Assembly: GCA_045600485.1 (NCBI GenBank)
Contig: JAZRXX010000084.1
Location: 7,449-71,448, forward strand
Length of the DNA stretch: 64,000 bases
Direction of reading: 5' to 3'
Source: Bacteroidales bacterium
GTDB lineage: Bacteria; Bacteroidota; Bacteroidia; Bacteroidales; UBA3663
Shown: positions 6,761-64,000 of the stretch, piece by piece
How positions within the stretch are numbered: position 1 is the first letter of the stretch
Layout: every line of letters starts with the position of its first letter
Translations under genes and position numbers: made by a program
Notes under the pieces: generated by a model
The model's database searches: none
Told to the model about the DNA's origin: nothing
The model's input: the letters and a program-made list of their open reading frames with translations, nothing else

Positions 6761-8092
6761 TTACTTGATCCATCGAATAATCTCTTTGAAGGTAAATTTG
6801 CGACCATACATCAAGATTCCCGTACGATAAATACGTGCAGATATCCATAAAATACCTAAAGCTGTAGCATAAAGCAACATAAGACTACAAATCAATTCGT
6901 ACCATGGCAAATCATAAGGCAGACGAATCATCATTACTACAGGCGAAGTAAATGGAACCATCGAACACCAGAAGGCTAATGGTCCATCAGGATTCTCCAT
7001 CGAGAACATACCTGCATAAAGAGCAAATACCATAATCATCATGATTGGAGCAGTGAATTGAGAGGCATCACTTGCTTGATCTACAGCAGAACCAAAAGCG
7101 GCAAAGAGACTTGCATAGAGCAGGTAACCACCTATAAAGTAAAGTACAAAGCAGACCAGAATTTGAGTGTAGTTCACATTCAATACCATCTGAATGATAC
7201 GAGACATAGTATCATCGCCCATATTTGCCATTGCTTCAACTCCAGGACCATGAGGTTGCATACCCGCAAGTTCCGGCATAGAAGTTGCCATGGTAGAAAT
7301 CCCAAATATGGTACCGATAATGCTTAAAATAGCAGTCCAAAGGGCAATTTGAGTCAAACCAACCAATGCTACACCGATGATTTTTCCCATCATCAACTCA
7401 AATGGTTTGCAAGTAGAGATAATAACCTCGACAATACGGTTTGTTTTCTCCTCGACAACACTATTCATTATCATGGCACCATAGATGATGACAAACATAT
7501 AGGTCAGCAAAGCAAGGATGAGACCTAAAATCATGCTCAATTCGGAAGAAGAGATGCTCTCATCACCTTCTTTGCTCCATTTGATATTGGTAGTCTTGAT
7601 ACCAGGATCACAGTTATCAATAATAGCCTCCAAACTGTCTATTGCATAGGCCTTAATGCGTTCATCTCGTACCGCCTTTCTGAGCGAACGGGAGACGGCA
7701 CGTTCAAGACTGCCATTCACACTCTTTTCGCTATAAATAGAAACCTTTGTACTTTGCACCAGATCGGAGGGAATAACAACCAATGCATAAAGACTATTTT
7801 CATTCTGCTGATAAATCTGATGCATATCAACAGAAGAATCTACTGGGGCAGTAATTGATTGAAATATATAATCTTCATCATCATGAATTGAGGATGCAAA
7901 ACGAGCATTTTCGCTTTGGTCAACGACAGCAACGATTTTGCGCTCATCGCTTTTTGCTTGTGACATCAAAACAGGCAATACACCACACAAGATGATAGAA
8001 AGAATAGGAACCAGGATGGTAGTGAAGATGAAAGACTTCTTGCAAACCATCTGCACATACTCGCGTTTGATAATAATAGGAAGTCTACTCAT
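6761..8092 (-). CDS. ABC-2 type transporter permease (NatB-like)
   Basis: 443 aa. It has an N-terminal TM segment, a large extracytoplasmic loop and a C-terminal multi-TM bundle. It overlaps the upstream ATPase gene by 8 nt. Confidence 0.8.
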   Translation of the reverse strand: MSRLPIIIKREYVQMVCKKSFIFTTILVPILSIILCGVLPVLMSQAKSDERKIVAVVDQSENARFASSIHDDEDYIFQSITAPVDSSVDMHQIYQQNENSLYALVVIPSDLVQSTKVSIYSEKSVNGSLERAVSRSLRKAVRDERIKAYAIDSLEAIIDNCDPGIKTTNIKWSKEGDESISSSELSMILGLILALLTYMFVIIYGAMIMNSVVEEKTNRIVEVIISTCKPFELMMGKIIGVALVGLTQIALWTAILSIIGTIFGISTMATSMPELAGMQPHGPGVEAMANMGDDTMSRIIQMVLNVNYTQILVCFVLYFIGGYLLYASLFAAFGSAVDQASDASQFTAPIMMIMVFALYAGMFSMENPDGPLAFWCSMVPFTSPVVMMIRLPYDLPWYELICSLMLLYATALGILWISARIYRTGILMYGRKFTFKEIIRWIK

Positions 8093-42456: not shown

Positions 42457-42514
42457 TTAAAATTAAAAGTTAAAAGTTAAAAATTAAAAATTGAAAGTTA
42501 AAAATTAAAAATTT
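42457..42514. repeat. Heptanucleotide tandem tract (TTAAAAR)n
   Basis: TTAAAAG TTAAAAG TTAAAAA TTAAAAA TTGAAAG TTAAAAA TTAAAAA (42463-42511). It lies 18 nt upstream of the MBL-hydrolase ATG on the minus strand. Confidence 0.9.
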
Positions 42515-46061: not shown

Positions 46062-46162
46062 ACAAAGCTTCGGAAAGCAACTTCACTATAGTAAAACTCA
46101 AAAACAAAGCTTTGGAAACCTACTTTACTATGGTGAAAGCCGAAAATAAGGCTTTGGAATAG
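46062..46162 (+). repeat. 2.4 copies of a 42-nt repeat, in frame with and directly after the HUH-protein stop codon
   Basis: The units start at 46062, 46104 and 46146 (ACAAAGCTTCGGAAAGCAACTTCACTATAG... / ACAAAGCTTTGGAAACCTACTTTACTATGG... / ATAAGGCTTTGGAATAG). The frame stays open from the TAA (46049-51) to a TAG at 46160-62. Confidence 0.85.
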
Positions 46163-49153: not shown

Positions 49154-50494
49154 ATGAAAAAGATGATTACTGCAGGGTTGATTTTCGCACTCAGCCTCAT
49201 CTTCGTCCAAACCGGAATGGCACAGGACGACATTTACTACAAAAAGTCGGACGTTAAAAAGACGGTCTATAAAGAAACGGAACAGGAAACCTGGTCCACA
49301 TCAGCCAACGATGACTGGGATCTCGACACCTACAATCGCCGAGGCCCGAAAGCCGACAACCAGTACAGTTCTTCCGCTACTTTATCCTATCAGGATGAGT
49401 CCGCTTTGACTTCGGTTACTACAGCCGATGCCGACAATAGTGAGATCATGTATCTGCACGATACGGTTTACGTTGTTGATGCTTATTATTTCAGCAATCG
49501 CATCCGTCGATTCTACAACCCACACTTCAGCTATTGGGCAGTTTCTCCATGGTATGACGTAGCCTATTACGATCCTTTCTTCTGGGATTACAGCTACTAT
49601 GATCCATACTGGTACATGACTCCAAGTTTCGGATTCCACTACGGAAGCTGGTGGGGCAGCTGGAACTATGGCTACTACGATGGTTGGTATGGAGGTTGGT
49701 ATTCTCCTTATTATCATCCTCACCCACATTATTATCACAATGTCTGGGCTCATCATCACCATTATGGGCATCATCATCATGGACATCACTACGATTTCCA
49801 CAACAATCACCATTACCATGGTTCGCGCAACAATATGGGTGGCACTTACCGTAGCCGCACAAGCAGCAGCCGTGGCACAATGGCCAGTGCCAGCACCAAT
49901 CGCAGCTACTCTCGCAGCGGAGCAACAAGTACACGTTCCGGACAAGCAACGCGCAGTTCAAATCTGAGCACTCGCAACTCGAACATGAATTCACGTTCCG
50001 CTTCAACAACCGGTAGCCGTAGTGCATCGACAAGTCGCAGCACAGCAACGGCCAGCCGTGGGTCAAACCAGTCTTCATCTGCCAATCGAAGCTCAAGTGT
50101 TGCAACAAATTCTCGTGGTTCCTCTGCTTCGAGCAGTAGCCATAGTGCAAGCGCGACCAACCGCACAAGTGCTGTAACCAATAATCGCCAGGCAACTGCC
50201 AGCCGCAGTTCTCAGAACAGTTCTGCATCAAGCCGCAGCAGCGTCAATGGTTCACGTAGTTCAAGCAGCAGCTACAGTGGTTCCCGTAGCTCAAGCAACA
50301 GCTCGTCGAGCAGTTACAACAGTTCACGCAGCTCAAGCAGCAGTTCTTCGAGCAGCTACAGCAGTTCACGCAGCAGTTCTTCGAGCAGCTACAGCGGTGG
50401 CAGTTCACGCAGTTCCAGCAGCTATAGTGGAGGCGGTGCTTCTCGCAGTTCAAGCGGTGGTGGCGCTTCTCGTGGAGGTGGAGGACGCAGATAA
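49154..50494 (+). CDS. Secreted low-complexity protein: Tyr/Trp/His-rich core plus a Ser/Arg/Thr-rich tail
   Basis: It has a signal peptide (MKKMITAGLIFALSLIFVQTGMAQ), an aromatic YxWGxW-like region (HYGSWWGSWNYGYYDGWYGGWY) and a His block (HHHHYGHHHHGHHYDFHNNHHYH). The tail is about 220 aa of S/R/T/N-rich sequence ending in GGGASRGGGGRR. Confidence 0.6.
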   Translation: MKKMITAGLIFALSLIFVQTGMAQDDIYYKKSDVKKTVYKETEQETWSTSANDDWDLDTYNRRGPKADNQYSSSATLSYQDESALTSVTTADADNSEIMYLHDTVYVVDAYYFSNRIRRFYNPHFSYWAVSPWYDVAYYDPFFWDYSYYDPYWYMTPSFGFHYGSWWGSWNYGYYDGWYGGWYSPYYHPHPHYYHNVWAHHHHYGHHHHGHHYDFHNNHHYHGSRNNMGGTYRSRTSSSRGTMASASTNRSYSRSGATSTRSGQATRSSNLSTRNSNMNSRSASTTGSRSASTSRSTATASRGSNQSSSANRSSSVATNSRGSSASSSSHSASATNRTSAVTNNRQATASRSSQNSSASSRSSVNGSRSSSSSYSGSRSSSNSSSSSYNSSRSSSSSSSSSYSSSRSSSSSSYSGGSSRSSSSYSGGGASRSSSGGGASRGGGGRR

Positions 50495-54793: not shown

Positions 54794-54867
54794 GGTTCCG
54801 TAGCTTAGCTGAATAGAGCGTCAGATTCCGGTTCTGAAGGTCGTGGGTTTGAATCCCACCGGAATCA
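54794..54867 (+). tRNA. tRNA-Arg (anticodon CCG)
   Basis: I folded the cloverleaf by hand. The acceptor stem is GGTTCCG/CGGAATC, the D stem GCTT/GAGC, and the anticodon stem TCAGA/TCTGA with loop TTCCGGT (anticodon CCG). The T arm is GTGGG-TTTGAAT-CCCAC and the discriminator is A. No CCA is encoded. Confidence 0.9.
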
Positions 54868-54873
54868 CTACCA

Positions 54874-55211: not shown

Positions 55212-56420
55212 ATGAAAAAGAATTTCGTTACCCCTGTGTTCAACCGTAGAAAGGATCTTGAGAAGAAAGGTTTTAGCAAGGTCGAGTTATTAATCTGTCT
55301 GACACGTAAAGACAAAAAGTACATCTCTATCAAAGAGTGCAATCAGAAGGAATGGGATTTATATCAGCATAGCTCAGAACTGAGAGCACAAGTAGCACTC
55401 TACAATGACATCGTCAACAAGATGTATGACCGCAATGAAGAGATGACCGTTGCCAACTTCAACGAGCGCATTGGTATCAAGGATCGGAAGTCAGAGAAGA
55501 AGGAAATGGAGAAACGCATATTCTCCCCTACCAGTTTCATCGACTTCATGCGCGAGGAACTTGCCAAAGAGAAGATTGTTGAAGGCACACGCAAGCATAC
55601 GAAAGGCGCCATCGATGCCATTGAGGAGTTTGGCAGACTGAACAGGTTTGCCGATCTCACCCCGAAGAATGTAAAGGCATTCGATGAAGCCATGAGATCA
55701 GTGGTAACTTCGAAGGGCAAGGTCAGAACTGATACCACCGTTGACAACTATCACAAGGTGCTGAAGAAGTATGCCCGACTTGCCTACGAATATGACTACA
55801 TCGAGAAGAATCCTTACGAGCATCCAATGTGTCACTTCAAGAAAGGCGAGTGCGCAGAACGTCAGCCTCTCAATGAAGCAGAACTGAAGAAACTCATCTC
55901 GATGCAGTTTATCTGCAATAAGAAGGAAACAGCCCGAGACCTCTTCATCTTCAGTGCCTACACAGGACTTGCCTACATTGATGCACAAAGCTTCGACTTC
56001 GAGAACATGACCGAGAAGATCGGAGATACATATTATATAGATGGCGCGCGCGTAAAGACAGGACAGGCATTCTTCACTCCGATATTGCCTCCTGCCATGG
56101 AGATTCTGAAGAAGTACGACTACAATCTTCCGAAGATCTCCAATCAGAAGCTTAACGATTATCTGCATCTGGTGCAGTCCGAGGCAAATATAACCAAAAA
56201 CATGACGAGCCACGTTGCGAGACATTCCTTCGCTACCCTTCTCATCTCATATGGTGTACCTATCGAGAATGTTGCGAAGATGATGGGACACGCAGAGATC
56301 AAGACCACGCAGATGTATGCCAAGGTCATGAAAGAGACCGTCGATAAGTTCACTCAGAACCTCCTTCGCGAGATGACTCCTCAGAAGAAAAAAGTAGGAA
56401 GACCCAAGAAGACTGCCTAA
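55212..56420 (+). CDS. Tyrosine-type site-specific integrase (Bacteroidetes IntDOT-like family)
   Basis: 402 aa. It has HxxR (HVARHSFATLL) and a catalytic Tyr (TTQMYAKV). Box I reads AYTGLAY, with Ala where the canonical Arg I sits and an Arg 12 residues upstream, as I recall for IntDOT. It lies 345 nt downstream of the tRNA-Arg. Confidence 0.9.
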   Translation: MKKNFVTPVFNRRKDLEKKGFSKVELLICLTRKDKKYISIKECNQKEWDLYQHSSELRAQVALYNDIVNKMYDRNEEMTVANFNERIGIKDRKSEKKEMEKRIFSPTSFIDFMREELAKEKIVEGTRKHTKGAIDAIEEFGRLNRFADLTPKNVKAFDEAMRSVVTSKGKVRTDTTVDNYHKVLKKYARLAYEYDYIEKNPYEHPMCHFKKGECAERQPLNEAELKKLISMQFICNKKETARDLFIFSAYTGLAYIDAQSFDFENMTEKIGDTYYIDGARVKTGQAFFTPILPPAMEILKKYDYNLPKISNQKLNDYLHLVQSEANITKNMTSHVARHSFATLLISYGVPIENVAKMMGHAEIKTTQMYAKVMKETVDKFTQNLLREMTPQKKKVGRPKKTA

Positions 56421-58204
56421 TCAATACGAATATCTGACATGCGATAAGCTGTCATCTTCAATAACTGCTGCATTCCAGATTCGGTGAATGTGGCGGTTAT
56501 TTTTTCTGCCAGGTACTTCTTTCCATGGATGTAGAAGATACTGTGAACGTCGGGAATAGTATCAGACAGGAAGGAGAAAGTATATTTGACAGAAGCGTCC
56601 ACCTCATGCTGCGTCTGGCGGTAATTAAAAGCCTCTTTGCTCGTCAGACGGAGATTATAAGGGTTATACTTACTGGTATTATCTGGCAGCACCTCAACAC
56701 TATCCACAAAGGGATGCGGAGCAGATGGATAGTAGTAGAAAATGTTATCTGGCCAGAATGCGACATAGAGCTTATCAAAGAACTCCTCTCGCTTAGAATC
56801 TCCATTGTTGATGATATTCACAGAAATGGTCTGGTTCTCGTCAGAATCAGCACCTGTATCGTCGCCCAGGTCGCCACAATCCACGAAAATCATATCACCC
56901 AAAGCAAGGGTTGTCTCATCAATACAAGCTGGCACAATCTTCATTTCACGCACCTCTGCATCCTTATAGTCAGGATGAATACGCGGACCGAAATTATTGA
57001 TCACCTGAAGGCGTTGCACATGGACAGTCTGCTTCTTGCTATTCTGATAGGTACGCATAGCCCGGATTACAAAGTAGGTATCATCAGGAGTGCAATAATG
57101 AATGCACTTATAGTAACTGCTATCAAAGGTACCGACTTTTTCAAGATATGGTTGGAGGGTGGTTCTCATCGTATAGAGGTTGTTCCATCTTACGATATTC
57201 ATCTTCGAGAACACCCATGGACAGGAATAGAACTTTGCCAACTGGTGACCACCGTCGGCATAGGCCAGGTTCTGCTGTTCAAAGAAAGTGTTTTGAGCCT
57301 CCTCCTTGTCCGTAATCTCCACCTTATGCGAGTCAATCACCTTGTCAATGGACACGACAGGCGAAGTAGCCAGACGCGACGCATTGAAAGAGAACTTGAT
57401 GGATCGAGCCTGGTCGTCCACCACGAACTCACCGCCGAGGAAGCACTCCACCTCGTCGAGGAACTCCGTAATAGTCCAATGAGGAAGGACGGCGTTACGG
57501 GCAGGGATATTCCAAGCGGCAGGAAGAGCGTTGCAGATGATCAAATACTTCCAATAGGAGTTTTCAATAGCCGAAATGTCATAGCGATAGTCCGTGGCAT
57601 CAAGGATACGTTTGAGTATGTCGAGGAAGAAAGGTTGACCGACGAGCGTTGACTGATATCTATCCCAGATGTAGTCTCTGCCAGGATCCATCGCATGAAG
57701 GGGGTTCTGAATGTTGCCTGACGTGTTATTCACCCAAGGAAGGCAGACAAAACCGAAGTAGTCAAAATCGCGTTTGGCACGATCCAACTGACTCTCATAG
57801 GAAGCCAGATAGTAACGCGGCTCCTCCGTCGCCTTTACCTGCACCGACGGCATAGGTATCTCATTGATGTATGTCTTATCGAGAGGCGTGGCGAAGTTGC
57901 GGACAGAACGCCCCTGCAGAAACTGCGTCTTCACCTCCAGCTCATTGATCTCGACGATATTCACTGAGCCCACAGCGTGAAAGTTGCGGTCATGAATCTC
58001 GCAATCGAGCAGCAAGGTATTGAGGTCAGCATCCTTTCGGTCAATATATCCGAAGATGTCACGGTTCTGGGGACATCCCTTCAGAGGAAAGGTGATGCTG
58101 AGCGTATAGGCATCAGCACCCGTAAAGAAAGAGTTCTCAGAGATGAAATCGAAAGAGACGCCCTTCTTCAGGGCAGCCTCCTTTCCGTTGATTAGAATGG
58201 TCAT
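56417..58204 (-). CDS. Phage-associated hypothetical protein (position suggests a distal tail/baseplate role)
   Basis: 595 aa, immediately downstream of the tape-measure gene on the same strand. It contains no motif I recognise. The 375-aa antisense ORF has an antisense-like composition. Confidence 0.6.
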   Translation of the reverse strand: MTILINGKEAALKKGVSFDFISENSFFTGADAYTLSITFPLKGCPQNRDIFGYIDRKDADLNTLLLDCEIHDRNFHAVGSVNIVEINELEVKTQFLQGRSVRNFATPLDKTYINEIPMPSVQVKATEEPRYYLASYESQLDRAKRDFDYFGFVCLPWVNNTSGNIQNPLHAMDPGRDYIWDRYQSTLVGQPFFLDILKRILDATDYRYDISAIENSYWKYLIICNALPAAWNIPARNAVLPHWTITEFLDEVECFLGGEFVVDDQARSIKFSFNASRLATSPVVSIDKVIDSHKVEITDKEEAQNTFFEQQNLAYADGGHQLAKFYSCPWVFSKMNIVRWNNLYTMRTTLQPYLEKVGTFDSSYYKCIHYCTPDDTYFVIRAMRTYQNSKKQTVHVQRLQVINNFGPRIHPDYKDAEVREMKIVPACIDETTLALGDMIFVDCGDLGDDTGADSDENQTISVNIINNGDSKREEFFDKLYVAFWPDNIFYYYPSAPHPFVDSVEVLPDNTSKYNPYNLRLTSKEAFNYRQTQHEVDASVKYTFSFLSDTIPDVHSIFYIHGKKYLAEKITATFTESGMQQLLKMTAYRMSDIRID

Positions 58205-58207
58205 GGT

Positions 58208-58242
58208 TAATTGATAATGGACAATGGATAATTGATAATTTA
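58208..58242. repeat. Heptanucleotide tandem tract (TAATKGA)n inside the phage-like element
   Basis: TAATTGA TAATGGA CAATGGA TAATTGA TAATTTA. It fills the gap between the TMP stop (58240-42) and the ATG of the 595-aa gene (58204). Confidence 0.85.
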
Positions 58243-61200
58243 CCTTCTGTACTTAGGTGTTTTGTTACGGATCAATCTGTCATACTCGTCCTGCGCCTGC
58301 TTCATACCTGTGTCGCCAGTGACAGAGTTCACTGTGATGAAAGGTTCATCAAGACGCTGCTTGAGAGAGGTCAGAACTTCAGCAAGCTCCTTGCCCGATG
58401 GAGATGCTTCGGGAACAGTGGCATTGTTTTCGATGATGACTCGCTGGGGTGCCTGAGACTGGGCAGACTGAGCGAGGACTGCAGGAGCCGTGATAGAGCG
58501 AGACACATCTTCGGAACTGATATTTCCGATGGTGTTCGTGCGTTGGGCGTAATCCAGTGCCTCAATCAATGGGCGTGTGCGAGGGTTCTTGGTAAGACTC
58601 TGAGAAGCGACCCATTCCCCGGCATGGACTACACCAGCAATCTCATCCACGGCTCCGTCCTTCGTAAAACCACCTTTCGAATAGCCCTGTGCCTCTGATG
58701 CCTGTTGCTGCTTCTTGATAGCTGCCACCTGCATCGCACCGGCTGCTATTGCCATGCCAGCTGCTATTGGTGCCAGGATATAACCGACCATAGGCACGGC
58801 AGCGGCAGAAGAATAGGCATTGATGGCGGCAGAAGCGGTCTGAGCGACGGCCTGAATCACCTGCATGGCGAACATCTTACGGTTCGACTCCTTCTTCGCC
58901 TTGGCAATCTCAGCCTCCTTCTGCTTTTCGAGACGCTTAACCTTGAAATTGTTACCCTCGGCCAGAGAGATCTCGCGGTCGTAGCGACGTTCGATATTGG
59001 AGGTCTGGATTTGTAACTCAGCCTGCAAGATGGTAGTCATCTGCTGGAAGATAGAAGCCATGCCGGACACGAGGGTATCAATGGAACCTGAAATAGCACT
59101 GCCCAGATCAGAGTCCAGGAACTCGATAACAGAATCGTTCCACTTTTCGAAGAAGTTCATATTCTCGTCGGCACCCTCGATGTTGTACTTACGCATCAGA
59201 GCCAGACGAGCCTTCTGAAAAGCCTCCTCAATGCGGAGTTTCTCCTTTGCATTGTCGCCAGCAGCTGCAAGTTCAGCATTATAGACCTCCTTCAGAAGTG
59301 CCATATCTGCGTCGAACTTAGCCTGCCGTTCCTGCGGATTATCCCCGAAATACGAGGCTTTCATCTTGGCGAGTTGATCCTGGTGCTTCTTCTCAGCCGC
59401 CTCATACTCCTTCTGATGCTTGCGCTGGTTGGCAAGCAACTTGTCCTGCAGTTGCTTCTCAGTGTTCAGCCGTTCCTTTGAGCCCTCTTCCTGTAGGTTC
59501 TTGAGGTTGTTCAGATGGGTAATATCCAGTTGCTCGATAGCCTCCTCATAGACCTCATACGTCATTTCAGAGTCGATGAACTTCTGCTTCAGTACCGCCA
59601 TCTGCTCGTTGTAGGATGCGTTCTCTTCCTCAACCGTCTGCTTGTGGGCAGCGTCGGACTGTTTCTTCAGGGCCTCGTAGTAACTTGCCTCGATAGTCAG
59701 GCGTTCCGTAGCGGTCAGATCAGTATGCTTCAGCTTCTTCTGGTTGAACTCGATTTCAATCTCATTCATCCGTTGCGTATAGGCCAGGTATGACTTCTCG
59801 CCCTTAGCGTAAGCGATTCGGTTCAGAGCATCCTCGCGCTCCTTCCATTCCTTTTCGGCAGCGAACTTATTCTTCGGATCTTCTGCGTTTGGATCAAAAT
59901 CCGGGTCAGAGTTATCTTCAACGACAGCCGCTTGTTTGATAGCAGCCTTTTGCAGGTCCTTACCATAGACCTCCATAATCTGCTTTTCAAGCGCCTCCTG
60001 TTCCCGCAGCTGCTTGTCGATGGCATCAATCTCTGCTTGCTTCTTCTCGATGGCAGCGTCCCATGAAGCATTGGCCGTATCATAGATGTAGCCCAAATCC
60101 GTGTCCACAGCAGAGCGACCATGACCTGTAGCCTGTTGCGGCTTTTTCTTATTCGCATCTATCTCCTTTGCTGCCTTTTCCTCCAGTTCAGATTTCTCCT
60201 TCTGCTTGGTGTTCATCTCCAGATTGAGGTCGGTTTTAGCCTTGCCGATAGCCTTCAGTTTGTCCTCGGCGCCCTCAATCTCATACTTTCGGACCAGTGA
60301 ATTGATGTACTCGTCCAGAGCAACCTTATTCTCCACATACTTACCCGAGGTTTCATCGAGGTAAGCATTGTAATCCGGAATGATGCCGTTGAGACGTTCG
60401 ATGGCAGCTTTCCTCTCGTCGAGAGTCAGATTCTCATTCATGGCAGCGTCGCGGAGAAGATTGAGCTGAAGACGCTCTTCCTCCATCTGCTTCGTTGCCT
60501 CTGCCTTGATGCCTTTCATCTCCTTTTCGATCTTCTGTTCCTGTGTGAGTTCCTTCTCATACTGGATCAGATAGACGATGACGGCAGCAATAGCCGCAGC
60601 GATCAAGCCCCAGAGATTCGCTTTCTGAGCAGAGTTCAGGGCGCGTTGAGCAGCAGCTGCACGTTCGAGATTGCCAGTCAGCTTATTGTAGGCGACAGAG
60701 CAATAGAGAACAGCCGTTCGATAGGTAGCCATCACGGCAGCACCCGCTTTGTGAGCAGCCTGGGTGAGCGTCACCCAAGCGTAGTGAGCCTTAAAAGCGA
60801 GGTTGCTGGCATTGATAGCCACCTTATAAGCAACGAGAGCAGCAGTACCCGAAATGATCTCCTTGTGGTACTTGATGACAAAATCAACTACCAAAGAGAG
60901 GAAACGGAGGGTCAGCGAAGTGGAAGAATAGACATGGCGCATGATTGGGAGCAGTTTTTCACCCAATTCAACAGAGAGCTCGGCAATGCGTTTCTTCGCC
61001 TTGTCGAGACCAGCCTGCACCGTATTGTTGAAAATCTCATACTCATGGGAAGCAGACGAAGCCTCCTTGAAGGCCTTGTTAGCCTCCTCCTGTTCCCACT
61101 TCACCATGTCAAGATGCTCGGCAAGCGTAGCGAGGACCTGGGACATGCGGACACCGTCCATTCCCAAGTCCTTGAACAGCGGAGCGAGGACAGCCAGACC

Positions 61201-62364
61201 GTCCTTGCTGCCGAGTTGCTGAATACGCTCCAAGAACATGATCAGACCATCATTCGTGCTGGTCTTCAGCACCTCCGTAAACTTCTCCACATCGAGGCCA
61301 ACCTGGGCGGCAACCTCACCTGGCTTCTGGAAGAGCATCATGGTCAGTTTGCCGAGGGCAGACGCGGACATCTCCGTCTTCTGGCCGTTAGCGTCGAGAG
61401 TAGCGCCGAAAGCCAGCAGCTGCGGAATCGTCAGATCGGCCTGAGCGCCTACACCAGCCATGCGTTGCGTAAACTCCACCAAGTATTGCTTGGATGCAGT
61501 ACAGTTCTGCGAGAGGACGTTGACAGCAGAACCAACGCTGAGCATGGCGTCGCGCGTACCCATATCCTTCTCCACGCCGAAGATGTTCGAGAGTTTAGCG
61601 ATGGTCTGAGTGGCACCGTTACCGAGGTCGACAAGCGCCACATTGATGATGTCAGCAGCTTCAACGTAGCCCTTGACGTCCTCAATCGTGTTCTTACCGA
61701 GACGACCTGCTTCCTGAGCAAGTTCGTTGAGTTGAGCACGGGAAGAACGGGTGCTCATGTTCTTGAAAGCAGTATTCAGTTCTTCCACTTCGTCCACCGT
61801 CAGACCTGTGTATTTGCGTGTGTTGGCCAGTTCCTCATCCATCTCAGCATAGGCATTGACGGCAGAACGACCAGCCATGACAAGACCGGTCACGGCAGCA
61901 GCAGCCCCCATGATGGTAGTCTGCCAGTCATTCATCACGCGATTGAAGCGAGTCCAGAAGGATTCAGTATCTCTCAGGTGCATATTCACCGCCTGGATCT
62001 CAGCCTTCACCATCTTGATCTTGGCACAATGGGCATCCCAGGCAGGAGTCCCACGTTCAATAAGATCGAGTTGCTTATTGAGCGTTGCGAGGGTCTTCTG
62101 CAATTCCTTAGGGGTTGCCTTATCAAGATGGCGCATCACATTCTCCACCTGTTGGGTAGCAGATTCAATTTCACGGATTTGGCGTTTCGTGTCGGTCAGT
62201 TCCCGACGGAGGCGCTTCAAATCCGTCTTATTACCAGCGGCAGCAGCCTTAGCGATGGCGCTTTCCAGGTTCAGAGCATTTGCACGAAGTTTCTGCAAAG
62301 TCTCTTCCGCTTGCTGACCGTTCACATTCAGGGTGACGGTCGCTTTAGTATTGAGTTCACTCAT
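58240..62364 (-). CDS. Phage tail tape-measure protein
   Basis: About 1,374 aa from ATG 62364 (MSELNTKATVTL). It has long coiled coils, internal TM-like hydrophobic segments and a TMP-core-like region (ELANTRKYTGLTVDEVEEL...MAGVGAQADLTIPQLLAFGATLDANGQ). A conserved C-terminal GYSKGGFTKDG...AGVVHAGEWVAS motif is also present. The track start 62469 would include the promoter box. Confidence 0.85.
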   Translation of the reverse strand: MSELNTKATVTLNVNGQQAEETLQKLRANALNLESAIAKAAAAGNKTDLKRLRRELTDTKRQIREIESATQQVENVMRHLDKATPKELQKTLATLNKQLDLIERGTPAWDAHCAKIKMVKAEIQAVNMHLRDTESFWTRFNRVMNDWQTTIMGAAAAVTGLVMAGRSAVNAYAEMDEELANTRKYTGLTVDEVEELNTAFKNMSTRSSRAQLNELAQEAGRLGKNTIEDVKGYVEAADIINVALVDLGNGATQTIAKLSNIFGVEKDMGTRDAMLSVGSAVNVLSQNCTASKQYLVEFTQRMAGVGAQADLTIPQLLAFGATLDANGQKTEMSASALGKLTMMLFQKPGEVAAQVGLDVEKFTEVLKTSTNDGLIMFLERIQQLGSKDGLAVLAPLFKDLGMDGVRMSQVLATLAEHLDMVKWEQEEANKAFKEASSASHEYEIFNNTVQAGLDKAKKRIAELSVELGEKLLPIMRHVYSSTSLTLRFLSLVVDFVIKYHKEIISGTAALVAYKVAINASNLAFKAHYAWVTLTQAAHKAGAAVMATYRTAVLYCSVAYNKLTGNLERAAAAQRALNSAQKANLWGLIAAAIAAVIVYLIQYEKELTQEQKIEKEMKGIKAEATKQMEEERLQLNLLRDAAMNENLTLDERKAAIERLNGIIPDYNAYLDETSGKYVENKVALDEYINSLVRKYEIEGAEDKLKAIGKAKTDLNLEMNTKQKEKSELEEKAAKEIDANKKKPQQATGHGRSAVDTDLGYIYDTANASWDAAIEKKQAEIDAIDKQLREQEALEKQIMEVYGKDLQKAAIKQAAVVEDNSDPDFDPNAEDPKNKFAAEKEWKEREDALNRIAYAKGEKSYLAYTQRMNEIEIEFNQKKLKHTDLTATERLTIEASYYEALKKQSDAAHKQTVEEENASYNEQMAVLKQKFIDSEMTYEVYEEAIEQLDITHLNNLKNLQEEGSKERLNTEKQLQDKLLANQRKHQKEYEAAEKKHQDQLAKMKASYFGDNPQERQAKFDADMALLKEVYNAELAAAGDNAKEKLRIEEAFQKARLALMRKYNIEGADENMNFFEKWNDSVIEFLDSDLGSAISGSIDTLVSGMASIFQQMTTILQAELQIQTSNIERRYDREISLAEGNNFKVKRLEKQKEAEIAKAKKESNRKMFAMQVIQAVAQTASAAINAYSSAAAVPMVGYILAPIAAGMAIAAGAMQVAAIKKQQQASEAQGYSKGGFTKDGAVDEIAGVVHAGEWVASQSLTKNPRTRPLIEALDYAQRTNTIGNISSEDVSRSITAPAVLAQSAQSQAPQRVIIENNATVPEASPSGKELAEVLTSLKQRLDEPFITVNSVTGDTGMKQAQDEYDRLIRNKTPKYRR

Positions 62365-62384
62365 AGACAAATCATTTTTGTGCG

Positions 62385-62392
62385 CAAAAATA
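62385..62392 (-). promoter_or_regulatory. Bacteroidetes-type -7 box TAnnTTTG directly upstream of the tape-measure gene
   Basis: The minus strand reads TATTTTTG, 20 nt upstream of ATG 62364 and downstream of the 62475-62502 terminator. Confidence 0.5.
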
Positions 62393-62474
62393 CCGCTAAA
62401 AAACAGAGTCCGAAAAGACGTGCAGACAGCACTTTCATATCGACTTTTAGAAAGATTTGAAATTTTCAAGGACT

Positions 62475-62502
62475 CAAAAAGAAAACACGCTGAATATCAG
62501 CG
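62475..62502 (-). terminator. Intrinsic terminator candidate (minus strand)
   Basis: The minus strand reads CGCTGA-TAT-TCAGCG followed by TGTTTTCTTTTTG. It is preceded by an 11-12 bp hairpin (TCGAGGGGAAAA-GTA-TTTTCCCTTCG, about 62510-62536). It lies about 85 nt upstream of the TMP promoter box. Confidence 0.55.
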
Positions 62503-62682
62503 CAAAGGGGTCGAGGGGAAAAGTATTTTCCCTTCGTTTCCGCGAGAGCAGCCCCCGACCGCCCTGCGTAATAGGCACTTTGAAAATTTGAAAATCGTTG
62601 CGGAATATGTAAGGGAGTTTCGCAAAAATCGTTGTTCTACGCGCTTGCCGCTGAAATTTTGCCGCAAAGGTCGCGCTTCGCT

Positions 62683-62878
62683 GATGATGGAGAGAGTTTC
62701 GGGATTTCGACCGATGGAGAGGGTTTCGCTTCTGCTGACGATGGGGAGAGTTTCTGCATTTTGACCGATGGCAAAGGGTTTCGCTTTTGCTGACGATGGG
62801 GAGGGTTTCGGGATTTTGACCGATGGCAAAGGGTTTCGCTTCTACTGATGATGGAGAGGGTTTCGCTTTGCGATGACC
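62683..62878. repeat. Seven tandem degenerate 27/28-bp repeats
   Basis: The GATGG unit starts at 62686, 62713, 62740, 62767, 62795, 62822 and 62850. The consensus is GATGG-RGAG-GGTTTCG-(5-6 variable)-TTGAC(C). Two subtypes alternate (..GGGATTTTGACC and ..CTTCTGCTGAC), giving a super-period of about 55 bp. Confidence 0.9.
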
Positions 62879-62914
62879 GCCAACCGCTAACGCGCGGTGG
62901 AAGGCTTGCCTACG

Positions 62915-63008
62915 AAAAAGAAAAAAGGGCGGTAAAAGCAAGTATGAAGATGTTTTGCGTGCAATACCTATGGATTTGCATCCGAAATTTCTTCATTCTT
63001 GCTCGCCC
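62915..63008 (-). terminator. Long interrupted hairpin plus T-run (minus strand)
   Basis: Three helices stack: GGGCG(62927-31)/CGCCC(63004-08), GCAAG(62938-42)/CTTGC(62998-63002) and ATGAAGA(62944-50)/TCTTCAT(62990-96). On the minus strand the hairpin is followed by TTTTTTCTTTTT (62915-62926). Confidence 0.55.
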
Positions 63009-63147
63009 TGCGGATAAAGAATACTATTCGACGGATCTGCTTGTTGTGCGGCACGAAAGGGCAAGTGACGTAGGAACCTGCTTTTCATGCCAGCACATAA
63101 AAGGAAGATACGACGATTTGTATTCTATCCTGATGCCTTGGCATTAT

Positions 63148-63205
63148 GAGGTGGAACCTTGACTGAGGATTAGTGAAACCAAGACGAAGTGAAGAGGTGG
63201 AACCT
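63148..63205. repeat. 12-bp perfect direct repeat GAGGTGGAACCT x2 (46-bp spacing)
   Basis: The copies are at 63148-63159 and 63194-63205. A third GGAACCT is at 63073-63079. Confidence 0.85.
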
Positions 63206-63688
63206 GAGTAGGCAATGCCTGACATAGCCGAAGGCTTTAGGGAGAGAAAGGAGGACAATGCAGATGCGCGGTAGAGAACGGAATGGAGAGAACAGAAGCA
63301 TAGGGAGGGCAACAGCATAAGTGGACTCGTGTGGCGGACGCCCGCCACACATAAAGGAAGCCGTAGGAATGTGGAGGACACCTATGCTATTGCCAGACCG
63401 GTGAGCCGTATGTCGGTGTGGCAGAACAGAGTGCCATGCTCTTGCGAAGGAAAAAGGCATCATCTATTCGCTGCTATAGGAACGGAATATAGAGCCTGGT
63501 GTTCAGGCGTAGATGGAAGGTACTGGAATGAATGGAGAGCCGATGCAGTGATTTGTTGATGCCCCGTAGCAACAGCATAGCACTCCTGCCACACGGACAT
63601 CGGGCAATGCGCTATTCTCATAATGGAGGGCGTAACTGTGTGCAGATGCGTGTCCTCCTTTCTGGGTGGGTGGGGCTAGCGTAAGCTT

Positions 63689-63853
63689 ATGGCGTAAGCA
63701 AAAGGGCGCTGAAGGCGCGAGTGTGCAAAGCAAATGGGCTAAGACGAAGAGCAAAAAAGAAAGAGAGGATCCTGTCAAGGGTCCTCTCTGGAGTGATGAT
63801 TATGGCGAAGCGATAAGGCGCAGAAGGCGCGAATGGTGCGAAGCAGATGGACT
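63689..63853. repeat. Direct repeat pair of about 52 nt flanking the 63753-63789 hairpin
   Basis: The copies are ATGGCGTAAGCAAAAGGGCGCTGAAGGCGCGAGTGTGCAAAGCAAATGGGCT (63689-63740) and ATGGCGAAGCGATAAGGCGCAGAAGGCGCGAATGGTGCGAAGCAGATGGACT (63802-63853). Confidence 0.8.
63753..63789 (-). terminator. Intrinsic terminator candidate (minus strand)
   Basis: The minus strand reads AGAGAGGACCC-TTGACA-GGATCCTCTCT (8 bp, one mismatch, then 2 bp) followed by TTCTTTTTTGC. Confidence 0.6.
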
Positions 63854-64000
63854 TTAGTGATGTGCGAATGCAGAAAAGAGCGAATGCTGAAGGGTGCCGC
63901 TGCCGGCACTTGACAATGGCAATGGCTGCTATGTTTTTCGTAGAAATCATAGTAGCGATTGCTGAAAAGAGATAGGCAGAAAGATTACTTCCTACTATGT

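Follow-up and report, generated by a model that had tools for sequence, protein, structure and literature searches.

A conserved non-coding module with an expandable box array at operon junctions of Bacteroidales prophages

A 64,000-nucleotide stretch of DNA from a Bacteroidales bacterium (GenBank assembly GCA_045600485.1, contig JAZRXX010000084.1, positions 7,449 to 71,448 of the forward strand; hereafter the window, in whose coordinates positions are given) harbors a tandem repeat array about 310 nt upstream of the start codon of a tail tape-measure gene, on the side opposite the integrase of the same prophage. Comparison with related loci revealed that this array is a lineage-specific, copy-number-variable expansion of an oriented box, Y-G-A-R-A-C-Y, at a fixed point in a conserved, structured, non-coding module, and that this module occurs as a portable unit where operons meet. 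An earlier sequence-only reading of the window had described the repeats and was silent on the module, which is the more informative of the two. Taken by itself the array is ordinary, whereas a conserved and portable module with an expandable box array was unexpected and is the more novel object.

Direct reading of the array revealed seven head-to-tail units of 27/28 bp together with a partial unit at the 5' edge (62674–62878). The units start with GATGG at 62686, 62713, 62740, 62767, 62795, 62822 and 62850, giving spacings of 27, 27, 27, 28, 27 and 28, in full agreement with the sequence-only reading. Tandem Repeats Finder (TRF) delimited 62674–62865 with a period of 55 repeated 3.5 times (88% matches, score 286) or, alternatively, a period of 27 repeated 5.7 times, and a repeat search recovered four 55-nt copies in the array, which confirms the 55-bp super-period reported earlier. 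The consensus proposed in that reading, GATGGNRAGRGTTTC, is exact in five units, and the units at 62767 and 62822 carry a 1-nt insertion (GGCAAAGGG); the count of consensus matches with up to two mismatches was reached by none of 100 dinucleotide-preserving shuffles of the window. The onset had been placed too late, as positions 62670–62685 match the 3' half of a B-type unit. On the minus strand, which is that of the tape-measure gene and is called the tape-measure strand here, the core GAAACCCTC is present seven times in the array, and each unit carries the box within (G/C)CGAAAC(C/T)CT(C/T)T(C/G)CCATC. The window version of the box, GCGAAACCCTCTCCATC, thus recurs every 27/28 bp, and a motif search placed the array boxes at 62692–62700, 62719–62727, 62746–62754, 62774–62782, 62801–62809, 62829–62837 and 62856–62864.

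That the array is non-coding, as previously proposed, was borne out by the lack of any open reading frame (ORF) in 62365–64000 under the standard code or any single stop-codon reassignment, and by a period that is out of step with the reading frame; hidden coding potential was rejected because no long ORF appeared in this interval under alternative stop codes. The array is likewise not a CRISPR, since its units are all versions of a single consensus without unique spacers between them, and the genes examined nearby include no cas-like ORF. With Rfam 15 at gathering thresholds, only a tRNA-Arg passed in the window, and a relaxed scan of 62300–64000 (E ≤ 10) gave no credible family, its spurious snoRNA match marking a long hairpin described below as HP0.

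The relatives on which the comparison relies were collected by protein and by pattern. Searching with the tape-measure protein returned 29 genome, 15 viral and 64 metagenome loci. With few exceptions these belong to Prevotellaceae, Muribaculaceae and other Bacteroidales of the rumen or gut, and none in these collections exceeded about 61% full-length tape-measure identity. At the DNA level, the window could be aligned with its relatives only at 62445–62567, between the array and the gene. A pattern search for the invariant box and G-rich block of the module, separated by 28–38 nt, gave 64 viral and 60 genome contigs that resolve into 114 unique loci, of which four are chance matches from other phyla, so that about 110 are true loci. 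A sequence profile additionally found diverged copies in nearly all the tape-measure loci that the pattern had missed, always one per locus. The module is common to more than 200 loci whose tape-measure proteins are only 45–60% identical. Cultured lysogens that carry it include Leyella stercorea DSM 18206, Xylanibacter ruminicola D31d and Ga6B6, and Prevotella sp. MA2016. In the isolate assembly of Prevotella sp. 885, three very short contigs of differing coverage (L146, L171 and L186; 519, 1644 and 1441 nt) all break in the conserved leader, which suggests that this genome holds several related prophages sharing the module.

On the tape-measure strand, the module spans about 250–300 nt, is non-coding and single-copy per phage, and reads as hairpin HP0, TTACCGC, the array or nothing, ACATATTCCGC, 32 nt, CAGGGCGGTCGGGGG, hairpin HP1, and hairpin HP2 with a T-run. 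All of its elements in the window lie on the minus strand. Its upstream conserved part (62927–63003) comprises the long hairpin HP0 (62937–63003) followed by TTTACCGCCC (62927–62937). On the 3' side of the array, the aligned interval contains a copy of the box, ACATATTCCGC, a variable purine-rich spacer of 32 nt, CAGGGCG-NNN-GGNGG, HP1, a C-run and HP2. In the window, these correspond to the solitary proximal box GCGAAACTCCC (62613–62623), which adjoins the invariant box TACATATTCCGC (62600–62611; present once per phage and unchanged across more than 100 loci); the invariant G-rich block CAGGGCGGTCGGGGG (62552–62566), 32 nt downstream of that box; HP1 (CGAAGGGAAAA-TAC-TTTTCCCCTCG; 62512–62536), with the C-run next to it at 62507–62511; and HP2 (TGCGCTGATATTCAGCGTG) with its T-run TTTTCTTTTT (62476–62504). 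The sequence-only reading had pointed to a related half-site, GGGAGTTTCGC, at 62613–62623; this is real and proved to be the motif copy that stands beside the conserved box in all relatives, where the equivalent element has the form GAGAC, GAAAC, GTAAC or TTAAC.

Downstream of HP2, the alignment shows the usual T-run, an AT-rich stretch, YGYGTCTTTTC-N17-19-TAnnTTTGC and the ATG of the tape-measure gene. The window carries the nearly invariant element CGTCTTTTC-N19-TATTTTTG(C) at 62385–62420 on the minus strand. Bacteroidota sigma-A promoters have TAnnTTTG at -7 and TTTG at -33, about 19–21 nt upstream. The -7 box TATTTTTG is present and conserved, and the sequence at -33 is TTTC, part of the invariant GTCTTTTC (TTTG in L035); judged by these motifs, the putative promoter of the tape-measure operon fits the Bacteroidota -33/-7 type. 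A general late promoter was rejected as an identity for the box and G-rich block because they occur once per locus. A variant phage without the module, represented by positions 1–245 of contigs L035 and L042, has kept the promoter-like element (GTCTTTTG...TACATTTG). It carries a long perfect palindrome, ATGCGGAAAATCGCACA...TGTGCGATTTTCCGCAT, whose 3' arm is like the invariant box, and the two contigs, which differ in length and were obtained from two samples, share the same first base, 244 nt ahead of the gene.

Both short hairpins are supported by covariation. A covariance model built from one sub-family and covering the G-rich block to HP2 matched 49 of the 54 sources tested, including the window (62474–62567, minus strand; 32.9 bits; E 3e-6). 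Among 47 sequences, 97% of HP1 cells were paired and seven of its eight pairs showed compensatory double changes, one position being CG in 18, AU in 13, UA in 10 and GC in 4; for HP2, 77% of the cells were paired and all six pairs covaried. The alignment scored here was itself fitted to the covariance model, and its covariation score was reached by none of 500 shuffles and fell from 0.44 to 0.05–0.15 when the pairing partners were slid. Wobble pairs were uninformative for strand assignment, being rare and symmetric (327 Watson–Crick, 3 G.U and 6 A.C cells in HP1; 21 G.U versus 18 A.C in HP2). Three other items are strand-specific, namely the orientation of the boxes, the co-orientation of the module with its flanking genes, and a T-run (at least 6 of 10 nt) found after HP2 in 28 of 47 relatives, against no A-run before it in any of the 47. 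The HP2 of the window is scored as an intrinsic terminator, with its hairpin at 62504–62486 followed by TTTTCTTTTT. The sequence-only reading had placed the array between two terminators; the claim stands for HP2 on the minus strand, but the second hairpin (62937–63003), although followed by a T-rich run in the window, is conserved in relatives without that T-run.

In about 82 of the roughly 110 true loci the module lies immediately upstream of the tape-measure gene, and in 48 of these the nearest recognized upstream gene encodes a lysis amidase. Another 11 loci have, directly in front of the module, a 210-aa ORF and the gene for a 533-aa terminase-like ATPase (Walker A GGRGIGKS; phrog_2, E 9e-5), which is homologous to gp19 of Flavobacterium phage 6H and also has a homolog in laban6-1; what follows the module there is either the portal block or accessory genes for a phosphoribosyltransferase (PRTase) and RadC. 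At four further loci it follows a holin–amidase lysis cassette and precedes an operator-like region and head genes, including a ClpP-type prohead protease. Since it is found after a terminase-like gene and between lysis and head genes as well as before the tape measure, the module is portable. Wherever it occurs, it stands where one transcription unit gives way to the next and has the same orientation as the late genes. A terminator-like hairpin often closes the gene upstream of it, and a -7 promoter box lies about 250 nt downstream of it in two contexts (tape measure, and L139/L150).

Several observations concern the surroundings of these junctions. L139 and L150 have, about 450–800 nt beyond the module and ahead of the head genes, an operator-like region with several -7 boxes and repeated palindromes (variants of GTACATTAGTAC and GTGCGCAC), which may be a regulatory switch region of that phage group. 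In L095/L078, about 100–700 nt downstream of the module and between it and the phosphoribosyltransferase/RadC gene pair, roughly 600 nt are ORF-poor and conserved between these two phages, which differ elsewhere; this stretch may represent a further non-coding element or else a small opposite-strand gene. Late-gene blocks also occur in differing order between genomes (L014, L207, L237, L243, L261 and others), the blocks being 363-201-226-191-210-terminase-like, p353-portal-DUF6712-F4 and tape-measure-F1, with lysis, anti-restriction, UmuC-type polymerase, HigB-like toxin and GH43 genes at their junctions.

Many relatives hold a tandem array at the same position, built of quite different units with periods of 36–182 nt. 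What these arrays share is the core GA[AG]AC[CT], extended as Y-G-A-R-A-C-Y-n-T. Over the 400 nt preceding ACATATTCCGC, the core is enriched 10–13-fold, and this holds for the tape-measure strand alone, with a density of 10–13 per kb versus 0–0.4 per kb on the other strand. When only independent interval families were counted, the preferred spacing of the boxes was 26–29 nt (28 of 92), with further clusters at 55–57 and 83–84 nt. Therefore, the 27/28-nt unit of the window is the basic unit of the whole family, and the longer periods seen in other loci resemble higher-order repeats of the kind that the window shows in its 55-nt super-period. A 10-bp helical periodicity of the box spacing could not be demonstrated, the statistic being driven by the single peak at 27–28.

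The number of boxes varies widely. Scanning 700 nt upstream in 99 loci, we counted from 0 to about 17 boxes per locus, with none in 16 loci, fewer than two in 36 and at least four in 45. Within one well-sampled human-gut phage species, near-identical leaders carry 5–13 boxes through gain or loss of a 74/75-nt unit, and the smallest of these arrays still hold at least five; this variation was seen in unit types of the relatives and not in the window's own, whose nearest relative has about 61% tape-measure identity. Hence, in syntenic relatives, where the sequence-only reading had proposed to look, the position is kept, the copy number varies and the core motif is conserved. Loci that lack an array read from the long hairpin HP0 to GCATCTTACCGCAC, directly joined to ATATTCCGC, so that TTACCGC(AC) abuts ACATATTCCGC, and it is precisely these two elements that flank the array in the window, L028 and L004. 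The array is therefore an insert in the module and not part of its core, and it is dispensable. This dispensability, with 16 of 99 loci having no box and 36 fewer than two, argues against an essential origin or centromere.

The arrays of 13 independent families folded no better than their shuffles on either strand (mean z +1.1 and +0.7), and their base skew differed by family, the window array being C-rich on the tape-measure strand and that of the L006 family G-rich. What selection appears to keep is a short oriented sequence at a preferred spacing, the signature expected of a row of protein-recognition sites and a poor match for either a structured RNA module or a tract defined by composition; we favor this reading because the motif is oriented, its spacing is preferred, the arrays lack an RNA structure of their own and their composition varies by family. 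In this respect, the iteron-like, protein-binding array suggested by the sequence-only reading offers the best description, but no Rep, ParB or repressor gene appears with the array, whose neighbors encode lysis amidase or holin, accessory, tape-measure and terminase-like proteins. The two RNA proposals of that reading fared less well. A plus-strand sponge RNA displaying GGA motifs lacks support, since the minus strand is indicated by the orientation of the motif, by the T-run and by the flanking genes alike, and GGA is not conserved in the other families; CsrB/RsmZ sponges present GGA in the loops of repeated hairpins, whereas these arrays fold no better than shuffles and GGA lies outside the conserved motif. 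A minus-strand pyrimidine-rich RNA module would be specific to the window, since other families are G-rich on that strand, and a C-rich Rho-loading tract was rejected for the same reason.

From the anatomy and portability of the module we infer, tentatively and at somewhat less than even confidence, that it is a cis-acting transcription boundary or control element equipped with a row of protein-binding boxes. The module would mark the end of one late unit (lysis, accessory or terminase-like genes) and the start of the next, here the tape-measure operon with its own promoter-like element. HP2 and its T-run would stop transcription arriving from upstream, and the two invariant blocks together with HP1 would form the recognition site of a conserved factor. 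A sequence-specific protein, probably encoded by the phage, would bind along the row of boxes; it may act on DNA or on nascent RNA and would tune either read-through (antitermination) or re-initiation into the downstream late genes. As the number of boxes would not be critical, it could drift like that of a variable-number tandem repeat (VNTR). This proposal is supported by the fixed position of arrays whose units are unrelated, by the orientation and spacing of the box, the variable copy number, the insertion of the array outside the core and its lack of a fold, by the covarying HP1 and HP2 and the terminator-like character of the latter, by the terminator-like hairpins upstream and the promoter-like element downstream of the module, and by its portability and constant orientation. 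Several points weigh against it: no recognizable Bacteroidota sigma-A promoter was found upstream of the module, and no candidate binding protein among the flanking proteins, which are mostly unannotated; the near-pure Watson–Crick stems provide no RNA- or strand-specific signature, so that the hairpins could act in DNA; a boundary element has no obvious need for 15 invariant G-rich bases; and a packaging site would account just as well for a single copy placed beside lysis or terminase-like genes.

A packaging site of the cos/pac type is the main rival, though in our judgment an unlikely one. Here the G-rich block would be the site of terminase cleavage or recognition and the boxes would be small-terminase repeats in the style of cosB R or pacL/pacR. 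The module is indeed single-copy per genome and strictly oriented, its invariant block is GC-rich against a genomic GC content of about 45%, it immediately follows the 210-aa ORF and the terminase-like ATPase at 11 loci, and in the other two contexts it comes directly after the lysis cassette, as lambda cos does. Two contigs, moreover, end at the G-rich block (L002 begins 7 nt before it and L504 just after). However, the terminase-like gene is 6 to more than 12 kb away in the main family, and no recurrent cut point emerged among the sequence ends, a weak test given that most are prophage or metagenome-assembled contigs; most nearby contig ends lie inside arrays, where repeat-induced assembly breaks are expected. 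The absence of the array, or its reduction to one copy, in about a third of relatives would also be odd for essential small-terminase (TerS) sites, and covarying stems of free sequence, as well as a T-run, are not features of known cos/pac sites. Some of the same features could be read as those of a lytic replication origin, in which a phage initiator would use the boxes as iterons and the host would recognize the blocks, the hairpins and the AT-rich stretch downstream as origin elements. Oriented direct repeats beside conserved blocks, hairpins and an AT-rich region, in a single-copy module whose repeat sequence varies by lineage as if co-evolving with an initiator, have that appearance. Iterons, however, are typically spaced by about 22 bp, or two helical turns, and the boxes are spaced by 26–29 bp (27/28 in the window) rather than forming 17–22-bp repeats at two helical turns; the repeats are missing in 16% of relatives (16 of 99 loci), no replication gene lies near the module in any of its three contexts, and the location is within the late structural region, all of which leaves an origin as the least probable of the explanations considered.

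A stand-alone non-coding RNA (ncRNA) carried as a phage moron, which we regard as improbable, would be transcribed on the tape-measure strand and place a seed or protein site in the single-stranded, invariant G-rich block, followed by HP1 and the terminator HP2, with the array as a 5' extension titrating an RNA-binding protein or defense factor. A single-stranded block, a hairpin and a terminator do reproduce the layout of a trans-acting small RNA, the module moves between gene contexts and lies among accessory genes, the arrays are unstructured, and fast repeat turnover is typical of arms-race elements. But no upstream promoter was found in any family, the stems have no excess of G.U pairs, no complementary target of the G-rich block occurs within the window, no Rfam family matches, and the array is dispensable. 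A bolder version, to which we give somewhat less credence still, sees in the module a portable ncRNA element of Bacteroidales phages, in which a single-stranded G-rich block, two hairpins and up to about 17 displayed boxes of 7–9 nt sequester a protein; the target would be a nucleic-acid-binding protein of the host or of a rival phage, such as a defense, transcription or termination factor, and the copy-number variation would then be an arms-race dial. Finally, the array might be a functionless VNTR, a piece of spacer amplified by slippage or unequal recombination near hairpin-forming sequence, with the shared motif reflecting ancestry only. In its favor, copy number is polymorphic within one species, many relatives lack the array and contigs frequently break in it; yet the 7–9-nt box, its orientation and its spacing of about 28 nt persist across array families that cannot otherwise be aligned, the smallest arrays of the well-sampled species keep at least five boxes, and a solitary box is retained beside the invariant ACATATTCCGC, which makes this explanation very doubtful. 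Diversity-generating retroelements, retrons, integrons, dif/Xer sites and sigma-54 or extracytoplasmic function (ECF) promoters were dropped on the letters of the locus, as their defining parts are missing: there is no reverse transcriptase gene, no inverted core arms and no GG/GC at -24/-12, and the distance from box to motif is variable.

The array is situated inside a siphovirus prophage integrated at tRNA-Arg, which upholds the earlier assignment to a mobile element. The prophage end and attachment region are marked by tRNA-Arg(CCG) (54794–54868, plus strand), identified by the Rfam/tRNA scan, and by the adjoining tyrosine integrase gene (55212–56420, plus strand), followed by tail genes; the 54 kb to the left appear to be ordinary Bacteroidales chromosomal genes, such as those for a UvrD-type helicase and a FadL-type porin. 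The first gene downstream of the module encodes the tail tape-measure protein (58240–62364, minus strand; 1374 aa; PF10145, PF06791). It is followed, as it always is, by the gene for a family F1 protein of 595 aa (56417–58204, minus strand), presumed to be a tail-tip or receptor-binding protein; both genes converge on the integrase. By tape measure, the nearest sequenced phages are temperate Flavobacterium siphoviruses of the Duneviridae (6H, 1H and laban6-1), which share the same end architecture of integrase, opposite-strand tail genes and tape-measure gene. The module profile found no copy in the first 25 kb of the Flavobacterium phages, 6H included. In 6H (L045, NC_021867), an inverted pair, GCGAAACCCTCG...CGAGGGTTTCG, surrounds about 60 nt directly upstream of the tape-measure gene (about 7800–7905, minus strand) and has the same 11-mer core as the tandem repeat of the window.

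The remainder of the ORF-free region (62900–64000), within which the window terminates before any terminase gene, is purine-rich on the plus strand (GC skew +0.26, AT skew +0.17) and showed no blastn similarity to the equivalent region of relatives. It contains a direct repeat pair (63696–63723 and 63808–63835), a hairpin (63762–63789) and two long-range inverted pairs (63405–63424 with 63586–63605; 63245–63257 with 63651–63663). Among the chromosomal genes, a 446-aa ORF (49154–50494) has in-frame repeats of 21/30/33/42 nt at 50235–50395 and probably encodes a repetitive protein, and other tandem repeats are an intergenic 42-nt unit repeated 2.3 times and (AAAATTA)x7.9, at 46062–46159 and 42459–42513, respectively.

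The module is previously undescribed, with no correspondence found in Rfam, in INPHARED phages or in the library of papers searched. DNA similarity searches of deposited INPHARED phages gave no match, whether the query was the window or the abundant human-gut variant, an exact-protein contig look-up of the window's tape-measure protein returned no record, a two-unit pattern of its own repeat had no match in the metagenome collection, and a literature search for the invariant sequences and related concepts returned nothing relevant. Prevotellaceae and their relatives dominate the rumen and many human gut microbiomes, and their temperate phages are almost uncharacterized; most proteins around the locus match no annotated family. 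The module is among the most conserved features of these phage genomes, and this conservation suggests that it likely marks a key lytic step, be it the late transcription switch, DNA packaging or replication. It thus offers a specific experimental target in the cultured lysogens and a sequence signature for spotting this phage lineage in metagenomes, and the array, as a hypervariable VNTR that breaks assemblies, could be used to type closely related phages.

Among known systems, arrays of the iteron or operator type (the P1, F and R6K iterons, the 43-bp repeats of F sopC, P2 Cox boxes and lambda cosB R) come closest in mode to the array. They share with it a short head-to-tail oriented motif in a non-coding region of a mobile element, a variable copy number, and a sequence that varies by lineage under conserved position and motif; they differ in that the present array has a period of 27–28 bp, is often dispensable, is embedded in a structured module and has no adjacent initiator, partition or repressor gene. 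The type III toxin–antitoxin arrays (ToxI and phage pseudo-ToxI) also consist of a non-coding tandem array followed by a terminator, expand and contract, and occur in phages. However, what follows here is not a toxin gene but the 1374-aa tape measure (PF10145) behind its own promoter-like element, the units are 27–28 nt without a conserved fold instead of 34–40 nt and pseudoknotted, and a non-repeat module is present. Like GOLLD, ROOL and the Bacteroidales motifs of Rfam, the module is a conserved structured non-coding prophage element of gut and rumen bacteria, located near the tRNA-integrated end of the prophage; unlike GOLLD and ROOL, it matches no Rfam family at E ≤ 10 and has only two short covarying hairpins with no stem signature specific to RNA. 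The late control region of lambda (PR'-qut-6S RNA-tR'), together with nut/boxA, is what the module most resembles in layout, but it is not known to contain a tandem array, and the module differs from it in that no promoter and no Q- or N-like gene was found there. In some relatives, the proximal position holds TTCTTTAAC, which we take to be boxA-like, and the window has GAAAC instead. The resemblance lies in a single-copy leader of conserved blocks, a hairpin and a terminator, placed before late genes and near the lysis genes.

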